Below, one piece after another: positions 21,001 to 27,000 of a stretch of DNA of 64,000 bases. This DNA comes from Escherichia coli (lineage in GTDB: Bacteria > Pseudomonadota > Gammaproteobacteria > Enterobacterales > Enterobacteriaceae): NCBI RefSeq assembly GCF_024298765.1, contig NZ_CP101210.1; one strand, given 5' to 3'. The position numbers were made by a program. Every line of letters begins with the position of its first letter. Positions within the stretch are counted from its first letter, which is position 1.

Positions 21001-24000
21001 TCTTAATTTGTCTGACTTTACAGGCTACACTGTACGGGGTTCGCCCTAGTTTCTCTGCCAGCCAGAAAAGGTGTTTACCAATTTCATCGTCCGGTACATC
21101 CTCCAGAACATCTCGCAATAAACTCTCGTCTGCCTCATTCCATGCCACACCAGCATTTGGGAAACGAGGATCGATCTCTCTTTCCTTCTTCTCCTTCTTA
21201 CTTTGCTCTTTTCGGGATGATACAGATACGACAGAACGTTCTTTTACCGCTGTAATTGCCATAACTGCATTGAGCAGAGATCTGCGCTCCACATCGTTCA
21301 GCATTTTTCCTTCACAGATCAAATCATTCAGGATGTCAATGACTAGATTCAGACTTTCTTCTGTTAGCTTCATATTTCAGACCTTGAAGTATGTAGATAA
21401 TCAGCACAATTACTAATGTGATAAATATCAGAAGATAATTTACAGGTAAACCGGAAAATACATCTGAAGAATAAAGGCCTCAGCTTAACGTTTCAGCCAG
21501 TTTGTGAGCTGATTGAGGTACGGCGATGACATTAACGGGAATTACTCCCCTATAGCTCTGAGCTTATTTTTCACCCTGGCAACATATGGTGGCTACTGCG
21601 CATGGTTTTGGAGTAGATATCTTACTACTCGTAGAATTGTGCTTACTGGTCAGGCCAGCGCACAGGCATTCCGTGCAATCAATAGAACACTGGTTTTTTA
21701 GTCTTCCGTTACCCATCAGGATGTTAGTGCAGATTCCGGTGTATTCGATCAGTTGTTCGGCGAATCAGCGATCGATCACGATGCGATTTCGTATGTTAGG
21801 GATGCTGGTATGATTACTCGCTGAAAAATAATGTGAAAAGGCAGTTTTTCTTTAGACATTTAGCTCATTCATGCTGTTGTTTTACGTTTTGCTGTCGTGT
21901 GCAGGATTATCTTTTCGTTACGGGACGATTCATTCCGTTTTAATCAGGAGCTATTGGCGTTGCTCATTGGTGGGATGCCGTAAAGTTTTACCGCGGCGAT
22001 TAATGATGTGAAGTCAATCCAAATCAACGGAGATCTCTCATCATGAATCAACCAATACACAATGATTACTGGTTATCCCGTTTTGAAAGTATTCTCAACA
22101 GTGCCCTGGTGCAACACCGTGCCGTCTCGTTAATCCGGGTGGATTTACGTTTCCCTGAGCATATGCCTGTCACCATCATGGATCCCGATCCGGATTCAGC
22201 GGTGATTTCTCGTTTTTTCGAATCCCTGAAAGCCAAAATTCAGGCTTACCAGCGGAAAAAACGACGTACCAACAAGCGTGTGCGTGCAACCACCCTGCAT
22301 TATTTCTGGTGTCGAGAGTTTGGCAAGGAAAAAGGCAGGAAACATTATCACGTGATATTACTGCTCAACAAAGATACCTGGTGCTCGCCAGGGGATTTCA
22401 CCGTTCCTTCTTCGCTGGCGACGCTGATCCAACTGGCATGGTGTAGCGCTCTGCATCTTGAGCCCTGGCAGGGTAATGGACTGGTTCATTTTTCCAGGCG
22501 GACGCCTTTCCGTAAACCGGCATCATCTGATGCTCGCCCTTCTTCCGATGATACGCCTTTGTCGGGTGGATGTTCTGAAACCAGGAAGGCTTCAGACAAA
22601 AAGCCGGGTGAAGCCGCTGTTCTCTGGATCAAGCGTGGTGATGTGGAAGCGATGCAGAAAGCCATGGAGAGAGCCCGTTATCTCGTGAAGTATGAGACGA
22701 AGCAGCATGACGGTTCTGGTCAACGTAATTATGGTTGCAGCCGTGGAGCGGGGCGTCTACTGGATGGCAGGTGAACCCTGTAAAACGGCATCCGGTGCCA
22801 GAGTATATGTCACAGTAAGGTCGTTGGCTGACGCCCTTAGCTCGTTTTCTGAAAAAGTTTTTCTGAAGTAATGTGGATTTGCCCCTATATTTCCAGACAT
22901 CTGTTATCACTTAACCCATTACAAGCCCGCTGCCGCAGATATTCCCGTGGCGAGCGATAACCCAGCGCACTATGCGGATGCCATTCGTTATAATGCTCGA
23001 ACGCCTCTGCAAGGTTCTTTGCTGCCGTTAACCCGTCTGGTTTGGGCATGATACTGATGTAGTCACGCTTTATCGTTTTCACGAAGCTCTCTGCGATTCC
23101 GTTACTCTCCGGACTCCGCACCGCCGTGTTCTTCGGTTCAAGTCCCAACATCCGGGCGAACTGGCGTGTTTCATTAGCCCGGTAGCATGAACCATTATCC
23201 GTCAGCCACTCCACTGGAGACGACGGAAGATCGTTGCCGAAGCGGCGTTCCACCGCTCCCAGCATGACGTCCTGTACTGTTTCACTGTTGAAGCCGCCGG
23301 TAGTGACCGCCCAGTGCAGTGCCTCACGATCACAGCAGTCCAGCGCGAACGTGACACGCAGTCTCTCTCCGTTATCACAGCAGAACTCGAACCCGTCAGA
23401 GCACCATCGCTGATTGCTTTCTTTCACGGCCACTCTGCCTGTATGTGCCCGTTTCGATGGCGGTACAGCAGGTTTTCGCTCAAGCAACAGCGCATTCTGG
23501 CGCATGATCCGGTAAACACGTTTGGCATTGATCGCAGGCATACCATCAAGTTCGGCCTGTCTGCGAAGCAGCACCCATACCCGACGATAACCATATGTGG
23601 GCAGCTCTCCGATAACATGGTGTATACGGAGAAGCACATCCGTATCATCAGTGTGACGGCTGCGGCGACCATCTTTCCAGTCATCGGTTCGTCTGAGAAT
23701 GACGTGCAACTGCGCACGCGACACCCGGAGACAACGGCTGACTAAGCTTACTCCCCATCCCCGGGCAATAAGGGCGCGTGCGCTATCCACTTTTTTGCAC
23801 GCCCATATTCAACGGCTTCTTTAAGGAGTTCATTTTCCATCGTTTTTTTGCCGAGCAGGCGCTGGAGTTCTTTAATCTGCTTCATGGCAGCAGCAAGTTC
23901 AGAGGCAGGAACGACCTGTTCTCCTGCGGCCACAGCAGTAAGACTTCCCTCCTGGTATTGCTTGCGCCAGAGAAATAACTGGCTGGCTGCCACACCGTGT

Positions 24001-27000
24001 TGCCGGGCAACAAGGGAGACCGTCATTCCCGGTTCAAAACTCTGCTGAACAATAGCGATCTTTTCCTGTGTAGTACGCCGTCTGCGTTTCTCCGGTCCTA
24101 AGACATCAATCATCTGCTCTCCAATGACTAGTCTAAAAACTAGTATTAAGACTATCACTTAAATAAGTGATATTGGTTGTCTGGAGATTCAGGGGGGCCA
24201 GTCTACTGAATGAGCGAAATGTGATTTACCTTCTTTTCTGTTCATTGTAAATTCCCTCTTTGCTAACGCAAATCATTATCATTACGCCTTTGGCAAAGGG
24301 AAATTTATGAAGAACAAATATATCATTGCTCCGGGCATTGCCGTGATGTGTTCTGCAGTTATATCATCAGGTTATGCCAGTTCTGATAAAAAAGAAGATA
24401 CGCTTGTTGTTACTGCCTCCGGGTTCACTCAGCAGCTCAGAAATGCCCCGGCCAGTGTCTCAGTCATTACTTCAGAACAACTGCAAAAAAAACCGGTTTC
24501 AGATCTGGTCGATGCAGTAAAAGATGTTGAAGGGATTAGTATCACTGGTGGGAATGAAAAACCGGATATCAGTATACGTGGTCTAAGTGGCGATTACACG
24601 CTGATTCTGGTCGATGGACGACGTCAGAGCGGTCGGGAATCCAGACCAAACGGCAGCGGCGGTTTTGAAGCCGGATTTATCCCTCCTGTGGAAGCAATTG
24701 AACGCATTGAAGTGATCCGTGGCCCTATGTCTTCCCTGTATGGTTCTGATGCCATCGGAGGGGTCATTAATATCATAACCAAACCAGTTAATAACCAAAC
24801 ATGGGATGGCGTACTTGGACTTGGGGGGATTATTCAGGAACATGGGAAATTTGGTAACTCAACCACAAATGACTTCTATCTGTCAGGCCCATTGATTAAG
24901 GATAAACTTGGTCTTCAGCTATATGGAGGAATGAACTATCGCAAGGAAGATAGTATCTCTCAGGGAACACCGGCAAAAGATAATAAGAATATAACGGCAA
25001 CGCTCCAGTTTACTCCGACTGAAAGCCAGAAGTTTGTTTTTGAATATGGAAAAAATAACCAGGTGCATACATTAACACCTGGTGAGTCTCTCGATGCCTG
25101 GACTATGCGGGGAAATCTTAAACAACCAAACAGTAAAAGAGAAACGCATAATTCACGTAGTCACTGGGTAGCAGCATGGAATGCCCAGGGCGAAATACTG
25201 CATCCTGAAATTGCTGTTTATCAGGAGAAAGTTATTCGTGAGATTAAATCAGGTAAAAAAGATAAATATAATCATTGGGATCTTAATTACGAGTCAAGAA
25301 AACCGGAAATAACCAACACAATCATAGATGCAAAAGTGACGGCATTTCTGCCGGAAAATGTACTGACCATCGGAGGTCAATTTCAGCATGCAGAGCTCCG
25401 TGATGACTCAGCCACGGGTAAAAAAACGACAGAAACACAGTCTGTTTCAATTAAACAGAAAGCTGTTTTTATAGAAAATGAATATGCAGCAACGGATTCT
25501 CTCGCCCTGACTGGAGGACTGCGTCTCGATAATCATGAAATCTATGGCAGTTACTGGAATCCAAGATTGTACGCTGTTTATAACCTGACCGATAATCTCA
25601 CACTCAAAGGGGGGATCGCAAAAGCATTTCGGGCTCCTTCAATTCGTGAGGTGAGTCCTGGATTTGGAACACTGACGCAGGGTGGTGCCTCTATTATGTA
25701 TGGAAACAGGGACCTGAAACCGGAGACCAGTGTAACCGAAGAGATCGGTATTATTTATAGTAATGATAGTGGTTTTTCGGCGAGCGCGACGCTGTTTAAT
25801 ACTGATTTTAAAAATAAGTTGACCAGTTACGATATAGGTACAAAAGATCCAGTCACCGGGTTAAACACTTTTATTTATGATAATGTAGGTGAGGCAAATA
25901 TCAGAGGGGTGGAGCTTGCAACTCAGATTCCTGTGTATGATAAATGGCATGTATCTGCAAACTATACATTTACTGACTCTCGTCGAAAAAGTGATGACGA
26001 AAGTCTCAATGGCAAGTCGCTGAAAGGGGAACCTCTGGAAAGAACTCCCAGACATGCAGCCAATGCAAAACTGGAATGGGATTACACTCAGGATATTACA
26101 TTTTATTCATCTCTGAATTATACGGGAAAACAAATCTGGGCAGCACAAAGAAATGGTGCTAAGGTTCCCCGCGTTCGTAATGGATTCACATCTATGGATA
26201 TTGGTCTAAATTACCAGATTCTGCCAGACACGCTGATTAATTTTGCCGTTCTTAACGTCACAGACAGAAAGAGCGAGGATATCGATACCATTGATGGTAA
26301 CTGGCAGGTCGATGAAGGACGCCGTTATTGGGCTAATGTAAGAGTATCCTTCTGAGAGTATATAAAGACAACCTGAGGCCGTGAGCCTCAGGTACCAGTG
26401 TAGTAATCAGTAATGTCAGTTTCCAGGTTGTAATGCTTTTAATCTTGATTAAAATAATCTTAATAATTTAAACTTGTTAAATATCGATGATTTTAATTTG
26501 AGAGCGTTCAGAATTCTGTGTCACGTTAAAAATTCTACAGCGTCATCACATTATTCAGCCGCCCTTCAAAATAAATGGCTAACTGCGACAATGTCAAATT
26601 CCAGCTTTGGATGGGCATTGTCCATTTCTCCTGTGCGTTCATCAGTCCCAGATAAAGTAGCTTCAACAGGCTGTTTTCATTCGGGAAAGCACCTTTAGGT
26701 TTTGGTCAGTTTCCTGAACTGGCGGTGGACTGATTCTATCGCGTTGGTTGTGTAGATCACCTTGCGGATATTCGCCGGATAGCGGAAGTACGCTGACAGA
26801 TTTTCCCTCTTGCGGCGCCAGGACTGGAGCACCACCGGATATTGCTGCCCCCGTTTCGCTTCCAGCTCATCCAGCGCCGTTTCCGACACCGCACGATACA
26901 CTGGCTTCAGGTCGGCCATGAACGCTTTATGGTGTTTTGACGCCACATATTTAATCGAGTTACGTATCTGGTGAATGACGCACAACTGTACCTCTGTCTG

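Follow-up and report, generated by a model that had tools for sequence, protein, structure and literature searches.

We found a complete IS2 element directly upstream of ireA in the 64,000-nucleotide stretch of Escherichia coli DNA analysed here (the window), in a widespread inherited arrangement of the PAI I5155 type that retains the predicted native ireA promoter and the Fur operator and most likely leaves Fe-Fur control as it is in strains without IS2. The ireA gene is present in 341 of 5426 complete E. coli genomes. The identical IS2-ireA junction occurs in 156 of these 341, from many hosts and laboratories, and an intact ireA upstream region was found in 195 genomes. Since the arrangement is widespread and inherited, the predicted promoter and Fur operator are intact, and the wrong end of IS2 faces the gene, we regard the locus as ordinary and of little consequence for ireA biology, with Fur control most likely intact. 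The gene order Gp2-IS2-ireA is already known from annotated genomes and from a 2022 paper on ESBL ST127 isolates (PMC9769692). That paper reports Gp2 variants with 87% protein identity and describes IS2, "instead of a hypothetical protein", as separating the Gp2 gene from ireA. The orientation of the element, the missing target duplication, the loss of 590 bp and the retained promoter are not noted in the published descriptions of the arrangement.

The IS2 element occupies positions 22874-24205 on the minus strand and is full-length at 1332 bp. Alignment with positions 1-1331 of the K-12 IS2A copy gave 97.7% identity end to end, with 31 differences. The element has every part by which we recognise IS2: a length of ~1331 bp, imperfect terminal repeats with an IRR of 41 bp (TGGATTTGCC...) and an IRL of 42 bp (TAGACTGGCC...), orfA and orfB overlapping in the -1 frame, and the A6G slippery motif, retained at 23790-23796. 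Both repeats were found, the IRL with a 1-bp insertion in its C-run. This extra C, by which the window copy differs from the published arrangement, is found in a subset of genomes and is common to the 100%-identical matches; the remaining junction matches extend over 400 rather than 401 bp. The features of the region are collected in Table 1.

Table 1. Features of the Gp2-IS2-ireA region, with positions in the window.
Feature	Position	Strand	Basis and remarks
Inovirus Gp2-family (YagK/YfjJ-like) gene, CP4-like island backbone	22043..22774	+	ORF; WP_001075491.1 in 100%-identical records 14EC020, IMT5155
Backbone tail up to the cargo junction, ending ...CTGAAGTAATG	22775..22873	.	Homology to ZYB39 and PA45B stops at exactly that base
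IRR, right inverted repeat	22874..22914	-	Terminal TGGATTTGCCCC... is the IS2A right end; faces the 3' end of the Gp2 gene
orfB, InsD, 301 aa	22885..23790	-	ORF; K-12 InsD differs at 2 positions only
orfA, InsC, 121 aa	23748..24113	-	K-12 InsC identical
Putative -10 hexamer TAGTCT of the IS2 promoter P_IRL	24149..24154	-	Points away from ireA
IRL, left inverted repeat	24163..24205	-	Adjoins ireA; one extra C in C-run; AA>TT at IS2 positions 42-43
Retained native ireA upstream DNA, 101 bp	24206..24306	+	One SNP vs PA45B and CFT073
Predicted ireA core promoter: -35 TTTACC, 17-bp spacer, -10 TAAATT	24225..24253	+	PWM
Fur box, overlapping registers	24262..24286	+	15/19 at 24262-24280; 13-14/19 at 24268-24286
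ireA, TonB-dependent siderophore receptor, 682 aa	24307..26355	+	Intact ORF; IreA in 100%-identical RefSeq records

Read from its junctions, the window IS2 is not a simple insertion but a replacement of 590 bp present in IS2-free alleles. The element is flanked by TAATG and CTGAA and thus lacks the 5-bp target duplication that marks simple transposition and that is present in two positive controls, K-12 IS2A (ATTAC) and the plasmid copy in L013 (TTTAG). An earlier note on this DNA had described a complete IS2 ending at 24205, which the IS2A alignment, both repeats and the ORFs confirm, and had suggested a comparison with IS2-free ireA loci. In two such loci, PA45B and CFT073, 590 bp lie between the two junction points where the window has IS2 instead. 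The note's idea that upstream DNA was displaced while the Fur operator was kept therefore holds, with a larger loss than it assumed. On the left side the break falls at a cargo junction, and four different sequences follow this same junction in different islands. The complete IS2 bounds the ireA cargo segment on the left, in place of 590 bp of ancestral upstream DNA. Insertion followed by an adjacent deletion and recombination between two IS2 copies are the candidate origins of the allele. The corresponding intermediates, with the 590 bp retained and IS2 at either the left or the right junction, were each found in 0 of 5426 genomes. Targeting of IS2 to a resident sequence resembling its own end is not claimed, the resemblance past the cargo junction being marginal (yfjI type, p ~0.02; ireA type, p ~0.11; six tests in all). 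The yfjI-type and ireA-type sequences past the junction are unrelated to each other (z ~1, global alignment).

Between the IS2 end (24205) and the ireA start (24307) lie 101 bp that belong to a block conserved among ireA alleles ~93% identical in unrelated contexts; in one of these, L004, the conserved stretch reaches upstream past the IS2 junction position by only ~10 bp. A strict consensus scan of 22700-24500 returned a single promoter-like site, within the ireA coding region, none in the 101 bp, and no terminators; a PWM scan was substituted for it in the ireA upstream region. TTTACC-17-TAAATT scored 9.41, the highest value in 24100-24320, and scores of at least 8 occur at ~0.05% of window positions. 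Both hexamers, at 24225-24230 and 24248-24253, are unchanged in the divergent alleles L002, L004 and L005. A second candidate, TTGCTA-17-TACGCC, is weak in the window allele. The PWM score together with this conservation points to TTTACC-17-TAAATT as the predicted ireA promoter.

Only three sites in the whole window, on both strands, match the 19-bp Fur consensus at 15 or more positions. The Fur box sequence upstream of ireA is the motif GCTAACGCAAATCATTATC found under a Fur ChIP-seq peak at ireA in CFT073 (PMC7157518, supplement), and the centre of this peak corresponds to window position 24264. The box recognised in the earlier note is thus real; its position (24267-24285) was one base off the second register, and the distance of about 60 bp given between it and the IS2 end was measured as 56-62 bp. 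With the predicted -10 ending at 24253 and the box beginning at 24262, bound Fur would cover the predicted start-site region. A Fur box that follows the predicted -10 rather than overlapping it is a less typical arrangement. An exact-pattern scan for the Fur-box region in one genome per species gave no match, and cross-species footprinting was therefore not possible. The earlier note had named a native promoter lying entirely within the retained 100 bp, together with expression unchanged from IS-free alleles, as what would speak against an effect of IS2, and this is probably the case: the best predicted promoter and the ChIP-supported Fur motif are both inside and conserved.

Because IS2 lies on the minus strand, its IRL adjoins ireA and transcription of its transposase runs in the direction away from ireA. 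The -35 of documented IS2 fusion promoters is supplied by IRR (PMC9330008, PMC11894529), and the IRL promoter P_IRL is inward-directed, its extended -10 starting with TGAT at IS2 bp 48-51 (PMC3299598). We placed the -10 of P_IRL in the window copy by carrying over the positions of that study via the IS2A alignment. With IRL facing ireA, both the IS2 promoter and the IRR end with its -35 are therefore directed away from the gene. Since the predicted core promoter and the Fur operator lie inside the 101 bp and the IS2 promoters point away, native control of ireA is most likely. The core promoter, with the Fur operator downstream of its -10, would be contained wholly in the retained DNA, and transcription would most likely start from the native promoter under Fe-Fur repression, just as where IS2 is absent. 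If IS2 has an effect, it would shift basal strength modestly, because the AT-rich tract upstream of ~-55 gives way to the GC-rich IS2 tip. We infer unchanged regulation and promoter position for ireA; altered regulation by IS2 is unsupported and less likely.

Published expression data cover both classes of allele. In a CFT073 fur mutant ireA is derepressed ~39-45-fold by RNA-seq (PMC7157518). APEC DE205B carries the window allele, since two primers used in that work, ireA-1 and ireACo-F, fall within IS2 and are exact matches to the window. DE205B ireA increased 1.8-1.87-fold by qRT-PCR in low-iron M9, under mild conditions and in DE205B alone, and 6.5-fold in a tonB mutant. The Fur-regulated iutA and iroN genes did not respond in the same experiment, so these conditions were weak. 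Complementation in DE205B relied on a vector that brings a promoter of its own. Thus ireA of the IS2 allele is still iron-responsive in DE205B in a qualitative sense, the magnitude of the response being uninformative. The DE205B work is work on the IS2 allele, and its "putative promoter" fragment begins inside IS2.

A less likely reading is that the IS2-linked rearrangement is a regulatory variant, through a promoter weakened by loss of an UP-like tract, iron-independent read-in from IRL, or loss of a linked RNA. In IS2-free alleles A+T makes up 80% of the 25 bp just upstream of the junction, against 40% in the IS2 tip, and this AT-rich tract, which could act on ireA in the manner of an UP element, is conserved in two of the three divergent alleles (L002 and L005). 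The third, L004, naturally lacks most of it. The IRL region contains an outward promoter-like motif, TTAAGA-17-GATATT (24146-24174, PWM score 8.25), on the strand that reads toward ireA; however, an outward promoter at IRL is not known from the literature, and transcripts starting in IS2 would still have to pass the Fur box to reach ireA. The 1.8-1.87-fold induction in DE205B is small beside the ~40-fold fur derepression in IS2-free CFT073, but the two values come from different experiments and the silence of iutA and iroN points to weak conditions in the former.

Besides the AT-rich tract, the 590 bp include an unannotated conserved element of ~106 nt that resembles a small RNA gene; it combines a box resembling a -10, a conserved transcript block and an intrinsic terminator. 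In CFT073 it corresponds to NC_004431.1 ~4935567-4935672 on the + strand. Loss of this terminator-bearing element favors a regulatory variant, but the element is not notably complementary to the ireA leader: a cis-linked antisense pair was rejected because the predicted duplex is no better than shuffled sequences (z = -0.5). A search of the IS2-free upstream region against Rfam returned sub-threshold chance matches alone (mir-316, ctRNA_pGA1). RNAalifold found no compensatory changes in the element, its pairs being invariant, and the structure is therefore without covariation support. We consider it a long shot that the 590-bp loss took an ireA-linked small-RNA-like gene and AT-rich tract that modulate ireA or other iron genes. 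If this were true, nearly half of ireA-positive E. coli, including many poultry-associated lineages, would carry a regulatory variant of a virulence-associated receptor. The presence of this element in the intact class and its absence from the IS2 class is the sole part of the locus that we consider worth an experiment. Expression comparisons among ireA-positive strains should keep the two upstream classes (156 with the IS2 junction, 195 intact) apart.

The earlier note had raised the possibility of a hybrid or outward promoter formed by IS2. A classical hybrid promoter activating ireA, as in IS2-ampC and IS2-acrEF, is very improbable, even though IS2 fusion promoters are documented. Such a promoter needs the outward -35 of an IRR beside the activated gene, and the IRR of the window copy is at 22874, 1.3 kb away and facing the Gp2 gene. 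The IS2 tip lies 19 bp upstream of the predicted ireA -35, and no -10 is found at the distance that would let the tip serve as a -35. That the junction is a recent transposition peculiar to this strain or an assembly artefact is hardly credible: the abundance of IS2 copies in E. coli (median 3 places per genome) and nothing else speaks for it, and the identical junction in 156 independent complete genomes, the independent report of the ST127 isolates and the DE205B primers, which imply the same junction, speak against it.

Several known systems resemble the locus in part. PAI I5155 of APEC IMT5155 (phylogroup B2) has the gene order, the Gp2 protein (WP_001075491.1), the IreA protein (WP_000792543.1) and the junction of the window. 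As in IS-bounded deletions and mosaic joints, the window has a complete IS, non-matching flanks and loss of the DNA that separates these flanks in relatives. Plasmid pSTEC2018_553-a likewise carries IS2 upstream of ireA in the same orientation, but as an independent event: that copy is of another subtype (95.8% identical), lies 510 bp upstream, and has a TTTAG duplication and no deletion. In ampC (Jaurin & Normark 1983), acrEF and acrAB mutants, IS2 also stands directly upstream of a fitness-relevant gene, and there an IRR -35 lies 17 bp from the resident -10. In the window, by contrast, the opposite end of IS2, the IRL, is turned toward ireA, whose resident -35 remains in place 19 bp from the tip.

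The IS2 upstream of ireA is the single copy in the window, and comparison with K-12 IS2A finds both terminal repeats in place and the A6G frameshift motif kept. InsC is identical to its K-12 counterpart and InsD differs at only two positions. The alignment to K-12 IS2A and the consensus match bear out the earlier note on the completeness of the element, the coordinates of the Fur box and the 60 bp spacing. Because the element lies on the minus strand, its left terminal inverted repeat (IRL) adjoins ireA and transposase transcription heads away from this gene. The promoter of IS2 itself, P_IRL, lies just inside IRL and is inward-directed, and the strong IS2 junction promoter has its -35 supplied by the right repeat, IRR (PMC3299598). 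In the window the IRR end lies 1.3 kb from ireA and points at the 3' end of the Gp2-family gene. With the bearer of the -35 facing away, the hybrid or outward IS2 promoter proposed earlier for ireA is contradicted. The IRL of the window (24163-24205) has six C, as against five in reference IS2, within the cleavage/binding region, and AA>TT in the palindrome where OrfA is reported to bind; a subset of junction-bearing genomes has the extra C as well. These changes may impair transposition of this copy.

Coordinates of the features at the IS2-ireA junction and in compared loci (window positions unless a locus is named; L001, PA45B; L010 and L014, further compared loci)
Feature	Position	Strand	Remarks
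Cargo junction ...CTGAAGTNATG	22863-22873; L010:4073; L001:3410; L014:2073		3' of Gp2-family gene
Complete IS2	22874-24205	minus	full-length alignment with K-12 IS2A, 97.7% identity
IRR	IS2 end at 22874		TGGATTTGCCCC...
orfA + orfB	24113 down to 22885	minus	
DE205B primer ireA-1	23749-23768		flanking check primer, inside IS2
DE205B primer ireACo-F	24045-24059		complementation primer, inside IS2
IRL	IS2 end at 24205		...GGCCAGTCTA
Predicted ireA promoter	-35 TTTACC 24225-24230; -10 TAAATT 24248-24253		17-bp spacer
Fur box	24262-24280		best register, 15/19 against consensus; overlapping registers to 24286
ireA	24307-26355		intact 682-codon ORF; IreA annotation in 100%-identical RefSeq records
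sRNA-like element, ~106 nt	L001 3671-3776; CFT073 NC_004431.1 about 4935567-4935672	plus	

The element is flanked by the unlike 5-mers TAATG and CTGAA and hence lacks a target duplication. K-12 IS2A is flanked by ATTAC on both sides and the IS2 of plasmid pSTEC2018_553-a by TTTAG on both sides, which shows that the duplication test works. In IS2-free ireA loci (PA45B, CFT073, and plasmid-borne and other loci) the two flanking points are 578-590 bp apart, with the layout ...CTGAAGTCATG, 590 bp, CTGAATGAGCG... in PA45B; the IS2 of the window therefore takes the place of 590 bp. Intermediates with IS2 at either junction and the 590 bp kept numbered zero among 5426 complete genomes. The replacement could have arisen by IS2 insertion and then adjacent deletion, or by recombination between two IS2 copies. 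The left IS2 junction falls on precisely the base where CP4-like islands have a cargo junction. Four kinds of sequence come next at this junction: yfjI (ZYB39 and M719), a TIR-domain gene (two other strains), the ireA leader (ireA islands free of IS2) and, in the window, IS2, whose IRR end sits exactly there. Identity to ZYB39 is 99.7% up to the cargo-junction base, and identity to PA45B is ~90% left of IS2 and 99.9% on the ireA side. This jump, from a ZYB39-like left to a PA45B-like right, identifies the IS2 as a mosaic joint. The final 16 bp before IS2 contain four mismatches against relatives.

TTTACC-17-TAAATT was the best promoter in a position-weight scan of 24100-24320 (score 9.41; scores of at least 8 occur at ~0.05% of window positions), and it ranked top in PA45B and joint top in one divergent allele. 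It went uncalled in a stricter consensus scan. An alignment of the window with six IS2-free loci, of which three have ireA alleles ~83-94% identical and set in unrelated contexts, showed no variation in either hexamer or anywhere in the Fur-box block; upstream homology starts merely 10-27 bp beyond the IS2 junction and is lost further out. For IS2-free CFT073, a Fur ChIP-seq peak with its centre 43 bp ahead of the ireA start and with the motif GCTAACGCAAATCATTATC, and a ~39-45-fold increase of ireA in a fur mutant have been reported (PMC7157518). The peak centre corresponds to window position 24264 and the motif is exactly 24262-24280. As the promoter candidate and the ChIP-supported motif both fall within the retained 101 bp, the operator and the most probable, predicted core promoter were both kept beside IS2. 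Only two other sites in the window, both strands counted, match the Fur consensus at 15/19: 38960-38978, which the aligned 14EC020 annotation places upstream of fecI, and 62309-62327.

The earlier interpretation is thus partly supported: its observation is confirmed, upstream DNA was displaced (590 bp) and the Fur box was kept, but IS2-driven deregulation of ireA in this strain is not supported. That regulation is altered through loss of an AT-rich tract, an outward motif or a lost sRNA-like element is, for the three jointly, unlikely. In intact alleles (those lacking IS2), A+T makes up 80% of the 25 bp just upstream of the junction, roughly -55 to -80 relative to the predicted ireA start, as against 40% in the IS2 tip. 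Two divergent alleles conserve this tract, and a third mostly lacks it. A promoter-like motif, TTAAGA-17-GATATT (24146-24174, score 8.25), reads outward through IRL. It is shared with canonical IS2 and is not known to be active. The replaced 590 bp also contained a conserved sRNA-like element. All IS2-free ireA loci examined carry it 220-370 bp ahead of the gene, and the window has it nowhere. It combines a -10-like box TAAACT (TATAAT in NCTC9112), a near-invariant transcript block, a hairpin-plus-U intrinsic terminator and a stable fold (z = -3.2), and occurs in 199/5426 genomes, at ireA loci only and annotated in none. The element has no Rfam match and no covariation, and its complementarity to the ireA leader is nothing special, which speaks against this route.

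Published APEC DE205B primers match the window exactly, and two of them lie inside IS2, so DE205B has the IS2 allele. In that strain ireA rose 1.8-1.87-fold in low-iron relative to iron-supplemented M9 and 6.5-fold in a tonB mutant; in that experiment iutA and iroN showed no response. Iron responsiveness of ireA therefore persists qualitatively in DE205B, with small fold changes. These data come from the IS2 allele alone, and the complementing plasmid has a promoter of its own, so they do not measure any effect of IS2.

Of 5426 complete E. coli genomes, 341 contain ireA, and 156 of these share the identical IS2-ireA junction; the upstream region is intact in 195, some genomes carrying both versions. 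The left Gp2-IS2 junction occurs in only 106 genomes, compared with 156 for the right one. In D10 (matches H65/H79) and APEC O2-211 (H68/H81) the two junctions are megabases apart or inverted, making the IS2 copy a breakpoint of large chromosomal rearrangements. Poultry-derived isolates were 9-10/24 for the IS2 allele and 6/31 for the intact allele in a small, evenly spaced sample that ignores phylogeny, and the IS2 allele looks enriched in poultry.

A PAI I5155-like island, integrated beside yicL and nlpA, makes up the window. Its CP4-like backbone (CbtA/CbeA toxin-antitoxin, antirestriction protein, DUF932 and YfjJ-like genes) is followed by ireA, decayed IS256-family and IS3-family copies, hlyE and the fecIRABCDE operon (context from compared locus L007); the window contains no tRNA gene. 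APEC IMT5155 has ireA and fec on its 94-kb PAI I5155, where gene order and proteins are the same as in the window, and a 2022 ST127 paper had already remarked on IS2 between ireA and a divergent Gp2 gene (PMC9769692). The arrangement is an inherited allele, common, annotated before and mentioned in print before, and not the peculiarity of this strain that the earlier note had suggested. A second, independent IS2 lies upstream of ireA on pSTEC2018_553-a (L013, 2269-3599). It has the same orientation as the window copy but belongs to a different subtype (95.8% identical), sits 510 bp from the ireA start codon and is bounded by a clean TTTAG duplication, without any deletion. In the IS2 fusion promoters of ampC and acrEF/acrAB the -35 is that of IRR (PMC9330008, PMC11894529), whereas ireA in the window adjoins the opposite end, IRL.
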